Source: a virus (Duplodnaviria > Caudoviricetes). From it: a DNA stretch of 39,291 bases. The position numbers and the translations under genes were made by a program. Numbering within the stretch: the stretch's first letter is position 1; the number at the start of each line of letters is the position of its first letter. The notes beneath the pieces are model-generated. The model saw only the letters and a list, made by a program, of their open reading frames with translations. It was not told the DNA's origin and searched no databases. Positions 340-34,846 of the stretch are shown one piece after another. The stretch covers positions 1-39,291 of the IMG/VR virus record IMGVR_UViG_3300005713_000009. One strand, given 5' to 3'.

Positions 340-582
340 ATGCTCCCTCATGATCTTGGGTTTCATGCCCACCTATGGACCCTTGCCCATACCAGTTACC
401 TCATACTCGCGGATCCGGAGACACCTAAGGCTTTACGTCGCGGCGTGAAGAAAATGATTCGCATAATAATGAAAAAATTGCCGCCCGAGGCAATAATCGA
501 GGTCGCCGCCGCCGAGGCGGAAGCGGCGATCAAGGCGGCGGAGCATCTTCAAGATTTCCGGCGACTAGATCCGGATTCCTGA
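340..582 (+). CDS. Hypothetical protein, convergent with the RHH regulator
   Basis: ORF 265..582. ATG at 340 is preferred because GGAG precedes it and a promoter lies upstream. Confidence 0.5.
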   Translation: MLPHDLGFHAHLWTLAHTSYLILADPETPKALRRGVKKMIRIIMKKLPPEAIIEVAAAEAEAAIKAAEHLQDFRRLDPDS

Positions 583-824
583 CCCTGAGAGAGCTTGGCG
601 AGCAGGTCTGCTCGTTGACGTTGAATCGTGGCTTTCTCAATCTTTCGAAGTTCGTTTATCAAGTCGACGAGCGTCTCCGCATAAAGGTCTAAGGCCGTAA
701 TAGCAAATTCATTCGCCGAGGCGAAGCCAGCCTTAGGCGCAAGCCTGTTTAATCGGTCAATAAGCTGATCGGGGGCGCGCAAATTCCATTGACGCTTTTC
801 GGTCTTTTCGGTCAGTTCGGCCAT
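549..824 (-). CDS. Arc/ribbon-helix-helix regulator, probable immunity repressor
   Basis: GGAGG SD before ATG 824; QWNLRAPDQLIDRLNRLA...SANEFAITAL fits the RHH pattern; C-terminal coiled coil. Confidence 0.7.
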   Translation of the reverse strand: MAELTEKTEKRQWNLRAPDQLIDRLNRLAPKAGFASANEFAITALDLYAETLVDLINELRKIEKATIQRQRADLLAKLSQGQESGSSRRKS

Positions 825-877
825 GTCGGTTCCTCCGTGGCGTCGATTATGGACGAATAGCCGAATAAACAAAAGTG

Positions 878-926
878 TTGACAGGTATGATAGGAAAATG
901 CTATTAAGAATCATAGCGATTTACTA
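878..926 (+). promoter_or_regulatory. Early rightward promoter with two operator-like sites
   Basis: TTGACA (878-883)-N18-TATTAA with an extended TG; imperfect palindromes TAGGAAAATGCTA (891-903) and TAGCGATTTACTA (914-926). Confidence 0.65.
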
Positions 927-948: not shown

Positions 949-1137
949 ATGAAAAAGCAAGATCAAATTCCAGCTCAAGACGATGACCTCGAAACGACTC
1001 AGGTCAACATCCGGCTGAGGAGAGGTACGGTCAAATGGCTTGCGGCGAAGCCCGATAAGAAGGCGAAAACAGTTCCGGCCAAAGTTCGCCGCATGGTCGA
1101 ATCTGCCCAAGACGAAGAAGAGAAAAAGGGCGGCTAG
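949..1137 (+). CDS. Small Arc/RHH-like regulator in a Cro-analogous position
   Basis: Purine-rich SD; TQVNIRLRRGTVKWL...TVPAKVRRMVE fits the RHH pattern; divergent from 549..824. Confidence 0.65.
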   Translation: MKKQDQIPAQDDDLETTQVNIRLRRGTVKWLAAKPDKKAKTVPAKVRRMVESAQDEEEKKGG

Positions 1138-1147
1138 ACTTTAAGCT

Positions 1148-1760
1148 CTCGCGCTCGTCGGTTCCTCCGAAGATCCTGACCGAGCGCGAGTGAGGGGGCC
1201 GGGGCGGTTTTTCAGTTGCCGGTGGAACTCCCCGGCCTTCATTCTTTGAATTATGGGGGCTTTTGGAATGCGAGCGCTCGCGGTCACGAGTATCGATACG
1301 TGATCTCTCCGGCCCCCGCCAATCTCCACGCGCGCCGACCGCAAAATCCAATCAAGGCGCGCTCCCGCGCGAGATCGAACGGGGCAATAATCAAGACGAT
1401 CTCGCGCGGGCTTCCTATCTGCGGGGACGCTCGGGGATCGCTGTCATGCCAAATGGGGGAGGAGGCAGCGCTCCCGAGATGCCCGCGATCCCGGCGCCTC
1501 AGCGGGCATTACTGGGGCCTGATCTTTTCAGGTTTGCGCGGGGATGGTTTACCCGGTTTGTGAATGGCCGGGGTTTCTACTCGCGCTTGCATGGGTGCGA
1601 AGTGCCGGCAGGACTCATACCCCCGCCAAGTCGGGCGCAAATCCCGAGCCCATGCATAGATTTTGATCCGCAAGGATTGAACGCTCAGGCCGCGGGCGTT
1701 ACGAGCGCGCGCTCGAGGCGGCTGCTTTATGACTTTTTCATAACGGGCTGAGGCCGCGGG
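1148..1760 (+). ncRNA. Candidate large structured non-coding RNA
   Basis: Near-continuous series of helices, G-U pairs and a GCAA tetraloop on the + strand; no credible ORF (see findings). Confidence 0.5.
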
Positions 1761-1811: not shown

Positions 1812-2747
1812 GTGGCTGTTGAATTCATTACGATCGTCTGGCGCTCATCTCCATATCGCGCGGAAAAACTACTCGTACAGCTCGCCCTGGCCGACTGGTC
1901 GAATCTCGATGGCGAATTTCATCCGACATACAAGCAGATCGCCGAGAAAGCCCGCATCACGAGGCCGGGCGCGATCGGCATCATCCAGGCAATGATCGAA
2001 GACGGCGAAATCGTAATGGTTGAACATAGCGCCGGGGGCGGCAGGGGGAAGCGGAACCATTTCCGCTTCGCCGAGAAATACTGCGCGGCCGTCCGAGAGC
2101 TCTCCCGAAGATGGTCCTCGAAGCGGGCCGAAAGAGTAAAGCAGGATGACTCTTTTAAGGGGGCGGAAAGAGTAAACGAGGATGACTCTTTTAAACCGAA
2201 AAGGGTCAAGGGGGATGACTCTTTTCGGGCGAAAAAGGGTAAACGAGAAACTGCGCATATAAGGAATAAACCGTCATGTTTGCCTGCAAATCCGTTATTG
2301 CAGCAGCAGGCAGCAGACCCGCCCGAGCAATTGCCTGCTGCTGCCTACAATGACGCTCACTCATCCCGCTTTCCATTCCCGGATGTCGAAGCCTTCGTTG
2401 AAGCCACAAAGCCGCACATCAAGAATCCTGGGGGCCTCGCTCGAATCATCTGGCGCAGCGGTGAAGAAGACGAGCGGATCGAGCGATGGACGAAGCGGCA
2501 GCAAAAGCGCCAGGAGATCGAAGAGCGGCAACCGTCGCCCGAAATCGCGGCGGACTTTTCGATGGACGATTGGATCGATGATCTGATCGCAAATAACTGG
2601 ATCGCTCAGCTCGAGAACGAGCGAGAGCAGATCGAAGCCAAGGGCGGGCCGAAGCTCGATTACGAGCGCAAGATCATCGCCTATTTCAACAACAGGGCGG
2701 CGAGTGAAGCCGCACAACAAGGAGGTAACCAGTGGAGAAAATCTTGA
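1812..2747 (+). CDS. Phage replication initiator (N-terminal winged HTH, lambda O-like organisation)
   Basis: KLLVQLALADWSN..G...PTYKQIAEKARIT is an HTH typical of replisome organisers; the gene contains internal iterons. Confidence 0.8.
   Translation: MAVEFITIVWRSSPYRAEKLLVQLALADWSNLDGEFHPTYKQIAEKARITRPGAIGIIQAMIEDGEIVMVEHSAGGGRGKRNHFRFAEKYCAAVRELSRRWSSKRAERVKQDDSFKGAERVNEDDSFKPKRVKGDDSFRAKKGKRETAHIRNKPSCLPANPLLQQQAADPPEQLPAAAYNDAHSSRFPFPDVEAFVEATKPHIKNPGGLARIIWRSGEEDERIERWTKRQQKRQEIEERQPSPEIAADFSMDDWIDDLIANNWIAQLENEREQIEAKGGPKLDYERKIIAYFNNRAASEAAQQGGNQWRKS
2131..2245. repeat. Iterons, putative replication origin
   Basis: Three copies of the imperfect palindrome AAAGRGT-N11-ACTCTTT at 2131, 2167 and 2200, a half copy at 2234, then an A-rich stretch. 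Confidence 0.75.
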
Positions 2748-3085
2748 CCAGTAATGAGAAAACTGAGCGCCTGGTAGTTCACGCCAGCCGGCTGAAGGTC
2801 TTCGCGGAGAAATTAGGCGAGCGCGGGCGAGGCATGATCGAGGCCGAGGCCTATGCGATCCTCGAAGTATTCATGCCGAGGCCGCTCGCGATCCTGCGCT
2901 ACGCCAGGCGCGGATTTAAGCAATGGCGCCTCTCGAAGTGGATCACGCTCGAGGTCAATGCTCGCATTTGGTGGTATCAGCGGGTGAAGGGGCTCGAGAC
3001 TGAGGCGGCGATCAATCTGGCCTGCGCCGCGGTCGGGGCGAGAAATGGGGCGAAAGCGTTCCCCACGCAGAAAGGGGGCGCGTGA
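2732..3085 (+). CDS. Hypothetical protein
   Basis: GGAGG SD; overlaps the end of the rep gene. Confidence 0.65.
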   Translation: MEKILTSNEKTERLVVHASRLKVFAEKLGERGRGMIEAEAYAILEVFMPRPLAILRYARRGFKQWRLSKWITLEVNARIWWYQRVKGLETEAAINLACAAVGARNGAKAFPTQKGGA

Positions 3086-3360
3086 TGTGGATTTTTCCGA
3101 TTGCGCCAGAAGATTTGGCCCACCCGAAGCAGTGCGCCGACTGCGGCAAGCCGATCATTTGGGCGAAGACAGGGAAGGGTAATCACGTCGCGATCAATCC
3201 TGGCTTCAAGGTTCTTGAGACGCTCGAATTCGGCGACGACGGCTATTTACATTTGATATCGCGCGAGGCCGCGCATTACGTCACGTGCGAAGAGCGCGCC
3301 GAACCACAGCCGGCCCTGACAAGGCGCGGAAGGAGGAAGAAAGCCGATGTGGATTTATGA
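3082..3360 (+). CDS. Small Zn-binding phage protein (paralogue 1)
   Basis: CxxCG.PIIWAKT.KG...H..TC motif; coupled start/stop with the upstream gene. Confidence 0.7.
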   Translation: MMWIFPIAPEDLAHPKQCADCGKPIIWAKTGKGNHVAINPGFKVLETLEFGDDGYLHLISREAAHYVTCEERAEPQPALTRRGRRKKADVDL

Positions 3361-3613
3361 GCCCGAGCCTGAGGCGCTCGCGCATCCGAAGAAATGCAAG
3401 TGCGGCGCCGAGATCGTCTTTTGCAAAACTAAAGCCGGCAGGATGGCGCCGCTCGAGGCCGGATTCGAAATAAGAGGCAGAATGAAAATGAGCTATTTCG
3501 AGCTCGTCGACGGCGAGCAGAAAACCATTAGCCTCGAGCTCTGCGAAGTGGACAATGGGGCGAATCACTTTTCGACCTGCAAATTCGCTCACTCATTCAG
3601 ACGGAGGAAATAA
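3347..3613 (+). CDS. Small Zn-binding phage protein (paralogue 2)
   Basis: MWIY.P.PE.LAHPK.C.CG..I.F.KT..G...HFSTC, clearly similar to the preceding ORF. Confidence 0.7.
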   Translation: MWIYEPEPEALAHPKKCKCGAEIVFCKTKAGRMAPLEAGFEIRGRMKMSYFELVDGEQKTISLELCEVDNGANHFSTCKFAHSFRRRK

Positions 3614-7867: not shown

Positions 7868-8617
7868 TCATCTGACCCTGCCCTCGATCCAAATAGACCC
7901 GCTCCATAGCTTGAGCAGCGGCGTCATTTCAGCTATGCGCCCGGCGACGTCGAAGAGCCCTATCAACCCGCGCGGAATCGCCGGATGCAGAAAGTCTCTC
8001 ATCGCCAGCTTTTCCACCGCATAGCCCGAATCCTCGAAGACCTCGCGCAATTCCTCGGGATGGAAAGCCATCTCATCAGGGCTGATGCCTCGCGCCTTTC
8101 GTTTTTCCAGGTCGGCAACGAAGTTATAGTATTTGTTGATCGGATTCAGAATGTTCGGCTCTGAGAATGCGAATCGTGCGCCCGGCTTGCACTTCCATCG
8201 CAATGCGCAAAGGGCGGCAGGCAGATTCAGGTGATGGAGCACTGAGACGCCGAGGATCGCGTCAAAATAGCCATCTTTCAATTGAGTCGGATTCTCAAGA
8301 TCGTCTTCGACAAATGAAAGGCCGGGATTCGAGCATTGCCGCCTTGCCTGCTGCAAGAGGTCGGGCGAGATGTCCACTGCCGTGATCTCGGCGCCGCTTC
8401 GCGCGAGCTCTCGAGAGAAAAGGCCTAGACCGCATCCGCACTCGAGGGCGCGCATGCCTGGCCGCAAATCGCAGGCCTCGATGAGCCACTCGACGCGCCG
8501 CCTGACGCGCTCTTTGCCTGCGGGAGTTCCCCACCCCCATATTTCGCTCGCTCCCCCGGCAAGGAGCAATTTGCCGTGTTCGCGCTCCGCTTCGATGTTG
8601 CCGCCTCGTGATTTCAT
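7868..8617 (-). CDS. Class I SAM-dependent methyltransferase (small-molecule or glycan type, not a DNA MTase)
   Basis: ALECGCGLG motif I, AVDIS motif II, FDAI...VLHH and EPN motifs. Confidence 0.9.
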   Translation of the reverse strand: MKSRGGNIEAEREHGKLLLAGGASEIWGWGTPAGKERVRRRVEWLIEACDLRPGMRALECGCGLGLFSRELARSGAEITAVDISPDLLQQARRQCSNPGLSFVEDDLENPTQLKDGYFDAILGVSVLHHLNLPAALCALRWKCKPGARFAFSEPNILNPINKYYNFVADLEKRKARGISPDEMAFHPEELREVFEDSGYAVEKLAMRDFLHPAIPRGLIGLFDVAGRIAEMTPLLKLWSGSIWIEGRVR

Positions 8618-8628
8618 GGGCCGAGATT

Positions 8629-10203
8629 CTACGCTTCCTTAATCCTGAAGGAAATATCAACCGCGCAGCTTGAATCGGCTTCCCACCTGAGATTCGAGTC
8701 GAAGTAACAGACGATCCATTTCTTTCTCAAGCGATCGAGCAAGATGAATCGCTTCCCCGGATAATAGAACTCCCAAAAAGCGAGCGCCCGCTCCAGATCG
8801 GCGAGGTCTTTGTTGATGAAAGAGACCTCGCGCGTCTGGAATGAGAGACCGTCTTTATCTTTGACCCGGCTCGTGCGCGTGCGGTCCTCGGCAGTCTCGA
8901 TGATCGCGGTTTTTTGATGCTCCGCAGTGATCGGCGCCGAAGGATCATCGAAGACGAACCCCTCGAGGATCTCAATATCGCGCGTCGCCACAAATCCCCC
9001 GCCCGATGCCGTGATGCGGATCTTGCGATCGACGCCCCCGGCCTGAATCCATTTCCCTGTCGCCGGATCAATTCCGCTCTCTGCGCCCTTCGGCGCGATC
9101 CAGAATCCGGTAATAGCATTTATCTTGCCGTCGCCGGCAGTCCATGCCGGGTTTGGAATATTCGTGGACAGATCGACTGCCTGGCCAGGCGCGACCGCGG
9201 TGTATGCGGGATTGATCACTGCCGGCACGGTGATTGTCAGGTCGGCGATTGAATTCGTGACGGCGGACGTCGCCCTTATGACTGAAGTTCCGGGCGTAGT
9301 CGGCGCCGTGTATTCGCCGAGATTGAGCGACCCGCCTCCGGAAAAGATTGAGAGCGCCACGATCGTATTTTGCGCGTCGTCATAGTTCGTCTTCGGCCTG
9401 ATTCGGGCGCCTGGCTGGAGCGTAATCGCATTCTCGCCGAGGATCTTGAGCGGCGGCGTCGACATCAGCGCGATTGCCCGCTGAATATTATTCGGGTCCT
9501 GTCCGGAGGCGAGAGATGCGAGCAGCAGATAATCGCCGGGCGCGGGCGAGCCTGTATATTCGATCTTCGTCGGCGAGATCAGCGCCGTCGAGCCGCCCCC
9601 ACCGATTATGAAGACGACCGGAGCGTTAGGATCTATTCTCCAATCCCCGATGAGCGCGGGCGGCGCGATCGCCGGACTGCCGCCGACAACGGGCGTCAAG
9701 AGTGAGGCCGTGTATGTGCATGGAAAAGAAATCGCGGGCGTGCCGGTTCGCGCGAAGAGCTGGCCGAATCCGCTCACTGTCAGCCGGAAGAAATCCCCGA
9801 TATAAACACTAAAAACATCGCCCGTCGTCGGGGTGTAAGATTGCGTGAAGAGCGTGATGCTCGCCTCATCCTTGATGATGATCTGGGAGCTCGTAATCTG
9901 GACCTGAAATTTGAGCGAGCCGCTCGAGTTCGAAACCGTATAAGTGAGCGCGCCCGTGCTCGTCGGCTTCTGATTATCGTTGATCGTCCACTCGAGGCGC
10001 CCGCCCGCGCTATAGAGCGCATTGCCCGATAGCCCTGAGACCGTTCCCGGCGCCGTGACGATCTGAAGGCGAGAGTCGGTCTGTATCTGCCCGTTCGAGA
10101 TCGTGTGCCATAGCGGCGGGGGTGGAAACGCCTCGATCGAGACGATCTGCTTATCTTGAGGCAAGACGGTAATCCCTGCCGGCTTGAGTTGTATTCTGCT
10201 CAT
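8629..10203 (-). CDS. Tail protein with beta-rich/Ig-like domains and a C-terminal distal-tail-like domain
   Basis: Ig-like GxYTAP..GT..IRATS repeats; C-terminal AFWEFYYPGKRFILLD..VCYFDS resembles gpM/Dit-type domains. Confidence 0.6.
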   Translation of the reverse strand: MSRIQLKPAGITVLPQDKQIVSIEAFPPPPLWHTISNGQIQTDSRLQIVTAPGTVSGLSGNALYSAGGRLEWTINDNQKPTSTGALTYTVSNSSGSLKFQVQITSSQIIIKDEASITLFTQSYTPTTGDVFSVYIGDFFRLTVSGFGQLFARTGTPAISFPCTYTASLLTPVVGGSPAIAPPALIGDWRIDPNAPVVFIIGGGGSTALISPTKIEYTGSPAPGDYLLLASLASGQDPNNIQRAIALMSTPPLKILGENAITLQPGARIRPKTNYDDAQNTIVALSIFSGGGSLNLGEYTAPTTPGTSVIRATSAVTNSIADLTITVPAVINPAYTAVAPGQAVDLSTNIPNPAWTAGDGKINAITGFWIAPKGAESGIDPATGKWIQAGGVDRKIRITASGGGFVATRDIEILEGFVFDDPSAPITAEHQKTAIIETAEDRTRTSRVKDKDGLSFQTREVSFINKDLADLERALAFWEFYYPGKRFILLDRLRKKWIVCYFDSNLRWEADSSCAVDISFRIKEA

Positions 10204-16723: not shown

Positions 16724-16846
16724 TTGAGTGGCGGAACTGGAATACGCAGGCGGGCGATTTATCGCAACGTCAAGTCGGGTGATTAAATCCGGCTGCCTTC
16801 CGATGGGCGGGGAAACCAATAGGGGTTCGAGTCCCCTCTCAGCGAG
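16724..16846 (+). ncRNA. tRNA-like RNA (Leu/Ser-type D arm, canonical T arm, anticodon loop replaced by two hairpins)
   Basis: D arm TGGCGGAACTGGAATACGC; stem GGCGG/CTGCC; T arm AGGGG-TTCGAGT-CCCCT; short acceptor TTGAG/CTCAG; extended -10 TGATAGAAT at 16711-16719. Confidence 0.7.
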
Positions 16847-23422: not shown

Positions 23423-24574
23423 TTAGCCGAGCAGCAGAGCGGTGTGCTCGCTCTTGATGCCCTTGACGCCCCAGGAAGCCGACACTTCGATAAATTCGGC
23501 GTGGTATCCGAGATACATCGCAATGTCGAAAGTAATGCCCGAGATAGGGTCTGAGATTTGCATCCGGTCAACCGCCATGTCTCTTCCGCCCGGTAAATAT
23601 GGGCCTCTCGCGAGCAGAATGAGCGATGAGCGATGGAAGGCCATATTGAGAGCGGCGACGTTTCCGACTGTGAGCGCGGTCGCTGAGGCGGGGATCGCTA
23701 CTCTCAAGCCCGGTTTTGCGAGCACGATCGTGCCGGGCGCCGAGACTCCTGTCTCTATCACATAGATATTCGGGTCGCCCGCGAAGGTCACGCGATCGCC
23801 GGCGAGGATCGTACCCGTGCCCGTGATGATCGGAATCGAGGTCGTGCCTATGGCAAAGCCCGCGGCCGTCGTCGTATAGGCTGAGCCAGTGCCCTTCGCC
23901 GGCGTCTTGATGCCGGCAGATTGGCGAATCGAGAAGTTGTGAAGGTCGCGCAGTTCGCCGCGTCTGAGCGTCACATCCGTCCCCGCTTCGCTCACCTTCG
24001 TGAGCTGCGTATGCTTACCCAGGTTGACTCCGGCGCTCGTATTGATGACGAGTTGCCGGCCGAATTCGGGCGCGCCGTTGTCGTCGAGAATCTTTTTCAA
24101 CTGCGCGCTGTCGCCGAGATCGGCGCCGCCGAATGGAGCAGTGCCCGCGGTTCCGAAAGCTCTCGAGGCGTTGATATATAATCCGCCGAGATCGGATTCC
24201 ATTTCATTCACAAGCGTTCTGATCGCCTGCGTGGTCTGATCCTTGAGAATGTTATTGATTCCCGGCCCGTTCTGATCAACTGATTGCTGCTCTTCACCTG
24301 ACCATGGGAGGGGCACGGCCCTCATTTTCGTGATCGCCATTTCGACGAAGGTGATGGGCACGCTATTCGGAGTGGGCGGCGTCATCGCCGGGACGATGTC
24401 TTGCGCCGGGACCTGAGGCGTGATCGTGACGCGCACGGGCTGATTGAGCGCGGCGCGAGCTGAAGAGGCGTCAATAGTGACGGCATTAATCAATCCGACA
24501 AGCTCGCGCGAGACTTCATCTCGCGCGGCGTAGAAAGTAGGGATTAGCCCTGTCAACGTATTCGGCAACGGCAT
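23423..24574 (-). CDS. Major capsid protein (P22 coat-like, HK97 fold)
   Basis: VSRELVGLI, LDDNGAP, NMAFHRS..L.AR and WGVK.IK.EH..LLLG motifs; follows the scaffold gene. Confidence 0.88.
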   Translation of the reverse strand: MPLPNTLTGLIPTFYAARDEVSRELVGLINAVTIDASSARAALNQPVRVTITPQVPAQDIVPAMTPPTPNSVPITFVEMAITKMRAVPLPWSGEEQQSVDQNGPGINNILKDQTTQAIRTLVNEMESDLGGLYINASRAFGTAGTAPFGGADLGDSAQLKKILDDNGAPEFGRQLVINTSAGVNLGKHTQLTKVSEAGTDVTLRRGELRDLHNFSIRQSAGIKTPAKGTGSAYTTTAAGFAIGTTSIPIITGTGTILAGDRVTFAGDPNIYVIETGVSAPGTIVLAKPGLRVAIPASATALTVGNVAALNMAFHRSSLILLARGPYLPGGRDMAVDRMQISDPISGITFDIAMYLGYHAEFIEVSASWGVKGIKSEHTALLLG

Positions 24575-24613
24575 TGCTACGTCTCCAAAGTCCCTACTTT
24601 ATGAAGCGGGACT

Positions 24614-25270
24614 TCAATCAATGAGTCGAGCAGTCCCTTTGGCGTGATCAGCCATAAACGCATCCTTTTGCGCCTGAGTCATTGCCTCGAATGACTCGCG
24701 GGTTAGCGTGCGCTGTCCTGGGCTGCCTTTGCCGCCGTTCTGAGCGCCGCTGCCTGCCGCTTTGGAAGCCTCGAACGCCCATGGGAGCTCTTCTCTCAAG
24801 TAAACTTCGAAAGCCCGCTCGGGCTTGATATTCGTCGGGTTTCCGTTTTTGTCTCTGAAGACGAGAGTCTTGTCTTCGAGATCGAAACGGTTTTGAGCGC
24901 GAAGCAAGGTCATTACAGCGTCGAGCCGATCGCCCATCACCCCGTATTTCGCGGCGAGTCCTCGAACCGGGTCCCAAATCTCGTGCTCGCGATTTGCCAT
25001 CTCGAGCGCCGCGATGCGGTCATCTTTTTCTTTGAGCTGTTTATCAATGTCCTCGCTCGTGCTCTTGCTCTTTTGATCAATCGTCTTCTGTTTCTCTTCG
25101 AGCTGTTTTTTCTCGTCGAGAAGTTTTTTATTCCTGTCGACTAAAGGCTTCGCCTTTATCTCGGCATATCTCTCGACGTCGAGAATGTGCTTTCCATCCT
25201 TTTCGACGTATGCGCTTCTGATCTCTTCCTCGACGGTCGTGAGATCGGTAACTTCGTGTGCAACGGCCAT
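24614..25270 (-). CDS. Capsid scaffolding protein
   Basis: YVEKDGKHILDV N-terminus, coiled coil, GSGA..G linker and TRESFEAM C-terminus. Confidence 0.8.
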   Translation of the reverse strand: MAVAHEVTDLTTVEEEIRSAYVEKDGKHILDVERYAEIKAKPLVDRNKKLLDEKKQLEEKQKTIDQKSKSTSEDIDKQLKEKDDRIAALEMANREHEIWDPVRGLAAKYGVMGDRLDAVMTLLRAQNRFDLEDKTLVFRDKNGNPTNIKPERAFEVYLREELPWAFEASKAAGSGAQNGGKGSPGQRTLTRESFEAMTQAQKDAFMADHAKGTARLID

Positions 25271-34569: not shown

Positions 34570-34597
34570 TTGCATTGTGCTAGCAATTTGCTATTAT
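34570..34597 (+). promoter_or_regulatory. Early promoter containing a perfect operator palindrome
   Basis: TTGCAT-N16-TATTAT with an extended TG; TAGCAA-T-TTGCTA at 34581-34593; T-tracts upstream. Confidence 0.65.
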
Positions 34598-34630
34598 ACG
34601 CCTATTGAAATCGAAGCAATCGGAGGAACC

Positions 34631-34846
34631 ATGACCATGACCACTTACACAATCAAGAGACGCGATGAAGAGACCGAATGCTCGGATTGCGCATATCCGC
34701 TCTTCATTGATGACAAGGCTTATATGAGCAAAGACGAGAAGTCGGTCTATTGCTCGAAGACCTGCCACGACAGGGCCGAGCGCAATGAGGCGCCGCTCGT
34801 CAAGCCGCAACCGAAGGGCGTGCGCGTGGGCTGCTTCGATGTTTAA
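34631..34846 (+). CDS. Small Zn-finger protein (CxxC...YCSxxC)
   Basis: GGAGG SD; TRASH/MYM-like Cys pattern. Confidence 0.7.
   Translation: MTMTTYTIKRRDEETECSDCAYPLFIDDKAYMSKDEKSVYCSKTCHDRAERNEAPLVKPQPKGVRVGCFDV

Follow-up and report, generated by a model that had tools for sequence, protein, structure and literature searches.

Lambda Cro acts on DNA to turn down both the repressor gene and the recombination/integrase operon. In lambda (tR1/nutR) and in HK022 (putR), the early rightward transcript contains a structured RNA immediately past cro; neither of these RNAs is known to contain an antisense loop directed against cI. Among the non-coding RNAs of phages, GOLLD and ROOL are long and prophage-borne, the sar RNA of P22 is encoded opposite its target, and the C4 RNA of P1/P7 and the CI RNA of P4 are processed by RNase P to a discrete small RNA. 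C4 is an antisense RNA that corresponds to Rfam family RF01695 (PMC2864571, PMC8201110) and regulates antirepressor expression (PMC8201110), and lambda OOP acts on cII and favors lysis when overexpressed (PMC12197685). The phage antisense RNAs described in the literature covered act on the antirepressor, cII, Q or host genes, and none of those found there acts on the ribosome-binding site (RBS) of the repressor itself from the lytic message.

The region considered here is the gap between a cro-like gene and the replication gene (rep) of a phage with an integrase gene. This gap is a conserved and undescribed RNA-level element, not one large non-coding RNA gene, and probably belongs, as an untranslated and modular stretch, to the early message that runs from cro to rep. 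On the basis of sequence complementarity and modeled folds, we propose with a probability of roughly 55% that its first hairpin is a pro-lytic antisense module acting in trans against repressor translation, i.e., an “RNA Cro.”

The window, by which we mean the whole stretch of 39,291 nt that was analysed, is a whole virus record of 39.3 kb that has direct terminal repeats and carries an integrase gene, lambda-like head and tail genes and an O-like initiator. At the end of its tail operon (7868-10203, minus strand), a methyltransferase-like gene is accompanied by a 524-aa ORF that has no family match. Blastocatellia metagenome-assembled genomes (MAGs) contain relatives of rep and of a leftward 91-aa gene, and the host is therefore likely an acidobacterium. 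The switch region consists, in order, of this leftward ribbon-helix-helix (RHH)-like gene (549-824, minus strand), a promoter region, a rightward 62-aa RHH gene (949-1137, plus strand), the 674-nt gap and rep (1812-2747, plus strand), an O-like replication initiator (phrog_391, E 1.9e-8). The 91-aa gene, for which five further homologues were found, has no match in Pfam, PHROGs or PDB; its position and weak leads to CopG/RHH look-alikes suggest that it codes for the repressor. Pfam, PHROGs and PDB likewise gave no match for the 62-aa gene, for which the name cro is suggested by position and by weak Atlas feature matches to RHH_1/RHH_3 clusters (0.93-0.94). A putative promoter/operator word (868-883, plus strand) is made of an AACA-N4-TGTT palindrome (868-879) overlapping a TTGACA, and its AAGTGTTGAC core is common to the window, to the related prophage L024 and to the IMG/VR phage L002. 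A second early operon, which contains an Erf-like gene, a xis-like gene and the integrase gene, follows a promoter-like TTGCAT-17-TATTAT (34570-34598, plus strand) that was read from the sequence and has a similar counterpart in L002. A small helical ORF (340-582, plus strand) converges on and overlaps the end of the repressor-like gene; it is kept in L024 and in the L002-type phages, has no family match and may belong to the switch. The gap was also considered as an origin of replication and rejected, as the iteron-like repeats sit within rep instead (internal 36-nt repeats, 2121-2225).

A preliminary description of the locus had placed a densely structured non-coding region at 1148-1760; the true span of the gap is 1138-1811. 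All six stem pairings listed there are perfect Watson-Crick helices, and each of the listed hairpins folds when excised. The stretch 1140-1770 folds at -290 kcal/mol, with a z-score of -3.66 on the plus strand and -2.20 on the minus strand (20 shuffles each). However, in a coarse scan of 500-nt windows (eight shuffles per window), the z-score was -2.2 for the initial 500 nt of the gap and lower in three of 14 other phage windows (-3.0, -3.1, and -5.2), so that folding alone is weak evidence. The z-score of -5.2 belongs to 24538-25037 (plus strand), within the scaffold and major head genes. Two of the proposed helices (1197-1237 and 1536-86) are not among the whole-gap helices above a probability of 0.5, and the long-range helix 1496-1503/1747-54, which was thought to close a multibranch domain, appears in the whole-gap minimum free energy structure but has a probability of about 0.14 and lacks its partner at that place in L024. 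The RNA family, which the preliminary description did not recognise, has no Rfam match either: no family reached its gathering score in the gap (best E 1.5 in 900-2000), and 13 related loci gave one tRNA and nothing else.

The most informative relative is L024, a prophage adjoining a tRNA gene in a Blastocatellia MAG, with the same gene order as the window and a gap of 458 nt (fold z-score -3.0) that aligns in blocks of 75-81% identity. A 14-nt word resembling a tRNA T-arm (16822-16835) also occurs in the tRNA adjoining L024. The ORFs that overlap the gap do look non-protein-like, as had been suggested: the four of them lack a Pfam match, and 11 of the 13 indels between the window and L024 are not multiples of three, which argues against coding. 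ORF 1263-1751, which shares the frame of rep and is separated from it by one TGA, was rejected as coding, the frames diverging across the next conserved block; the open frame leading into rep in L024 shares PAIPAPQR..LGPDLF..AQAAGVTSARS with it, and this short stretch may still be coding. The ATG at 1480 is not kept in L024. A minus-strand gene behind the word at 1160-1169 was likewise rejected, there being no start codon at Shine-Dalgarno distance in the window or in L024.

Read along the plus strand, the gap is a succession of modules. The first hairpin, H1 (1148-1190), is followed by H2 and a U-rich tail (1197-1247), a tR1-like terminator candidate whose stem is kept in L024 and to which a similar second hairpin with a U-rich tail corresponds in the L002-type phages. 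A three-way junction, H3 (1255-1317), and a cluster of hairpins that includes a GCAA tetraloop (1536-1681) are each missing from L024 as a whole unit. Between them, the conserved core H4-H7 (1322-1533) has an invariant run of 22 nt (1322-1343), an invariant 10-bp H5 stem and a covarying upper H6 stem. A conserved block of short hairpins (1686-1743) contains invariant runs of 26 and 18 nt, and single-stranded runs of 18-26 nt are invariant between the window and L024. Finally, a terminator- or processing-site-like element (1744-1808) has a 16-bp hairpin with a 17-nt loop and then, after a 2-nt spacer, a U-tract just before the start of rep, which, as first described, has no Shine-Dalgarno sequence (no GGAG within 25 nt of its GTG). 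Its arms (1744-1760 and 1778-1794) pair with a probability of about 0.8 in the window and 1.0 in L024, where five of five changed pairs still pair. A terminator scan called neither this hairpin nor H2. Mapping of the 86 window-predicted pairs onto L024 left 67 unchanged, four changed on both sides, six changed on one side and nine broken; with 10 of 19 changed pairs kept (p ~0.10), the covariation proposed as a check on the structure is not significant between these two sequences. The word AATCAAG recurs in predicted loops (window 1350-1356 and 1389-1395, the H5 loop of L024, and a post-cro loop of the more distant locus L073), and TCAAG precedes the stop codon of cro by about 205-216 nt in the window, L024 and the L002-type phages; these words are possibly protein-binding or boxA-like signals.

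A search for repeats brought to light, post hoc and among other repeats, that 825-837 is identical to 1157-1169 on the plus strand. As 825-837 is the Shine-Dalgarno region of the leftward repressor-like gene (target 1, minus strand), a plus-strand RNA containing H1 would be antisense to it: all 13 nt of 1157-1169 are complementary, without a mismatch, to the stretch that precedes the repressor ATG. Shuffling produced such a match in none of 3000 trials with the first 140 nt and in one of 3000 with the whole gap. In addition, 1160-1170 is complementary over 11 nt (5 of 2000 shuffles) to the RBS (34620-34630, plus strand; target 2) of ORF 34631-34846, with which the second early operon begins. 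The complementary nucleotides of H1 (1157-1170) include most of its apical loop (1165-1171), which is predicted to be unpaired with a probability of 0.7-0.96 and would expose an anti-Shine-Dalgarno seed; five of the 13 matched nucleotides lie within a stem. The 10-mer core of the match is present exactly three times in the 39 kb, twice in the sense orientation at the two RBSs and once in antisense in H1, and occurs 19 times per 6.3 Mb and 15 times per 10.2 Mb in host MAGs. Of the 41 start regions compared, none forms a better duplex than that of the repressor (-29.9 kcal/mol), and the exact match of target 2 is the second-longest. The net gain after unfolding is small in cofolding of short fragments (-2.6 kcal/mol in the window and -0.2 kcal/mol in L024). 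In L024, the H1 loop is invariant and forms a duplex of 11 bp with the repressor leader, including one G.U pair (4 of 600 shuffles), the exact match without the G.U being 6 nt only; one flanking position is altered together in loop and leader.

The choice of RBS in these phages affects how such matches are to be read. CGGAGGAA is found at 4 of 10 GGAGG-ATG sites in the phage vs. 276 of 6987 in five host-lineage genomes, a tenfold enrichment. Early genes of these phages commonly have CGGAGG as their RBS (7/10, 9/12, and 9/15 sites; host, 1604/5282), and a motif so widespread deprives 8-nt matches of most of their meaning. In the early operons of L002 and of the similar phage L003, a C precedes most GGAGG-ATG sites (9/12 and 9/15, respectively; host, 30%), often as ACGGAGG; this C-preceded GGAGG is a phage-specific RBS tag.

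A second clade, found in IMG/VR via the integrase, is made up of L002, L003 and L060, which are about 97% alike. These phages share the layout, the promoter words and a cro-like gene with the window and carry a different rep. BLASTP gave no alignment between the repressors of the window and L002, which are 26% alike, and a profile comparison established their homology (probability 95.5, E 1.3e-8). The post-cro stretch of this clade is about 140 nt long (138-140 nt; z-score -3.75) and consists of two hairpins and a U-rich tail. Its first hairpin corresponds to the 8-bp base stem of H1, of which all eight pairs are kept in the four sequences compared, two of them with changes on both sides (21 of 500 shuffles, a control that relatedness can inflate). 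The pairs of its H2, read from single folds, show two both-sided changes among the L002-type phages, with an invariant loop word; RNAalifold on a MAFFT alignment, in which H2 was misaligned, gave none. The loop word of L002, L003 and L060 differs from that of the window and is antisense to their own repressor leaders over 10, 9 and 10 nt, respectively, a marginal result (34, 85, and 29 of 3000 shuffles; p 0.01-0.04), and this match is located in H2 rather than in H1. Their leaders carry the matched word twice, each time over an ATG. Exact matches across clades do not exceed 7 nt, so that the two clades use different sequences for the same loop-leader relation. In the sense orientation, the match to the own leader is 5 nt in the window, L024, L002, L003 and L060, and the match of the second clade to the other early leader is 7 nt, at chance level.

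The five positive loci form only two clades, and the other four of the nine loci tested (L072, L073, L074, and L078), whose repressors are more distant homologues, have no cognate match (5-6 nt). The test left out L039 and L042 (orphan repressors without cro or gap), L046 (where rep follows directly), and L070, L071, L075 and L076 (no clear cro-like gene by eye). In L074 (G003:C753), the 248-nt post-cro gap is tiled by hairpins with CU-rich, anti-Shine-Dalgarno-like loops that leave its own leader unmatched, and in L073 (G029:C9) a long post-cro hairpin is built of GGGATGA/TCATCCC heptad repeats (fold z-score -8.3).

How does the locus compare with the systems described above? The preliminary description offered both C4/CI and GOLLD/ROOL as analogies, and the former is the better lead. 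Like C4 and P4 CI, the element would, judging from its sequence, steer lysis-lysogeny through short complementary sites on phage mRNA that face single-stranded parts of the RNA; it has no covariance-model match at the gathering score. However, the logic appears reversed: C4 restrains an antirepressor and thereby favors lysogeny, whereas the predicted targets here are the RBS of the repressor-like gene and the first gene of the operon containing the integrase, whose roles are putative, and the effect would thus be pro-lytic. The element also lies in the cro-rep gap and not in a region such as the immI of C4. Base pairing that blocks a switch gene is likewise the principle of P22 sar and lambda OOP (PMC12197685). 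Both overlap their target on the opposite strand, whereas H1 (1148-1190) does not overlap its targets (825-837 and 34620-34630), the first of which lies about 330 nt away, and its matches are of 10-13 nt and to two operons. With tR1/nutR and putR, the gap shares its place just after cro on the early transcript, and no likeness in sequence or in Rfam was found.

If H1 is such a module, firing of the rightward promoter would yield a plus-strand transcript through cro and H1, the loop of which would seed on the repressor Shine-Dalgarno sequence; the upper stem would then open and ribosomes would be excluded. The repressor would silence the transcript and the transcript the repressor, a double-negative loop that would lock in lysis, and the same RNA might turn down the recombination/integrase operon via target 2. 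H2 with its U-rich tail may terminate a short cro-H1 transcript, and the remaining 570 nt would probably be an accreted leader that tunes read-through into rep, or its translation, via the 1744-1794 hairpin. More tentatively, and with less confidence than we place in H1 itself, the loop may be re-matched in each clade as an RNA-level immunity specificity, grown here into a 450-670-nt riboregulator that gates a rep without Shine-Dalgarno sequence, in an all-RHH switch of Acidobacteriota phages whose lytic message would carry the off-switch for the repressor and the integrase operon. Such an arrangement would supplement the classic two-protein switch with an RNA arm, in phages of a phylum that is abundant and barely studied, and a module of 45 nt aimed at a named target of 13 nt would offer a function for part of a 670-nt gap without an Rfam family.

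Of the other readings, the best placed, although unlikely, is that the region acts exclusively in cis, as an attenuator, an antiterminator (lambda tR1/nut- or HK022 put-like) or a processing leader governing entry into rep, and that the anti-Shine-Dalgarno loop is incidental. The position directly after cro, the two conserved hairpin-plus-U-tract elements (1197-1247 and 1744-1808) and the absence of a Shine-Dalgarno sequence from rep all fit, as do the distant loci without a match, which keep post-cro hairpins (fold z-scores of -2.0, -3.3, and -8.3 in three of the four). An antiterminator could be drawn in the window, where 1496-1503 is a possible partner for the 5′ arm of the last hairpin (probability 0.14 vs. 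0.8 for the hairpin itself), but this pairing is not conserved in L024; the GCCUCAGC segment of the core 1322-1533 has alternative partners in both phages, and only in the window does one of these partners overlap the last hairpin. Moreover, the last hairpin, with its 17-nt loop and 2-nt spacer, is uncalled as a terminator, and a purely cis-acting leader leaves the clade-specific matches between loop and leader unexplained. For the downstream 570 nt, a cis-acting leader is compatible with the antisense reading of H1.

It is distinctly less probable that the repeated words are DNA operators of RHH proteins, which bind short repeats, with one copy at the repressor start, one past the second early promoter and one as a road-block after cro. 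The word of the window forms a weak palindrome (CGG-N5-CCG), target 2 is situated about 16-26 nt past the likely start site, and the two copies of the L002-type leader word are 22 bp apart. Nevertheless, in every case (twice in the window, in L024, and in the L002-type phages) the copy that follows cro is antisense to the target message and sits in the loop of a hairpin with a covarying stem that DNA binding would not need; this consistent orientation and loop position disfavor operators. The L024 difference is G.U-compatible, and a better candidate for an operator is the separate palindrome AACA-N4-TGTT (868-879).

A stand-alone large non-coding RNA gene of fixed architecture, as first suggested by analogy with GOLLD and ROOL, is very improbable. 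The gap is a long, GC-paired and prophage-borne non-coding stretch, its predicted structure is dense (z-scores of -3.7 and -3.0 in two phages) and its single-stranded runs are invariant, but its length ranges from 674 to 458 to about 140 nt, whole modules have been acquired or dropped and the helix that was to close the multibranch domain is not conserved, which points to a modular part of the cro-rep message. It matches no family model, is embedded in an operon with no sigma-70 consensus promoter found in 500-2200, has no further copy in 401 genomes (DNA) or 87 genomes (models), and no tRNA gene was called in the window. What holds up from the preliminary description is a structured, non-coding and undescribed RNA bearing on rep or on the lysis-lysogeny switch. 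The least credible reading, that of neutral GC-rich sequence or a decayed insert with hairpins and matches due to chance or local duplication, could invoke the other windows that fold equally well, the covariation p of ~0.10 and the lack of a gap in L023 and L046, but fails to account for L024 blocks about as conserved at the DNA level as the start of rep, for the clean loss of whole modules and for an H1 stem kept between clades with such divergent repressors.

The element has a narrow distribution in the collections searched. INPHARED gave no match to the gap, PLSDB five short chance matches only, and IMG/VR, scanned with rep, the repressor (P0021, A3) and two DNA patterns, no window-type relative, the pattern matches (6 and 5) having been discarded since they did not extend or looked coding. 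An alignment of rep retrieved 19 non-self loci, several with little upstream DNA, and L024 is the one locus among them that has the gap as well. The gap is absent from L046 and from L023, the nearest remaining rep relative (72%), so the element is dispensable for this rep family. A DNA search of 401 genomes of the class returned G001 and one 23-nt chance match, and two-sequence RNA models run on 87 genomes returned G001 only, with two weak extra matches that look coding; a match in G002 (L027) was rejected because it falls in a coding region. The sequencing runs listed as containing the sequence included no RNA run, and DNA contigs of sequencing runs contained no variant of the gap. No published description of the element was found in the literature covered, which excluded most subscription journals; a catalog of over ten thousand candidate phage RNAs could include it in its supplements (PMC10690425). 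Long, apparently non-coding stretches also lie upstream of related rep genes in L006 (~2700-3580) and L014 (~2900-3340), without sequence kinship to the window gap or an Rfam match. In host contigs, L039 (G002:C128) and L042 (G001:C469) each carry an orphan repressor-like gene with its RBS and a promoter-like word, and are possibly domesticated immunity genes.
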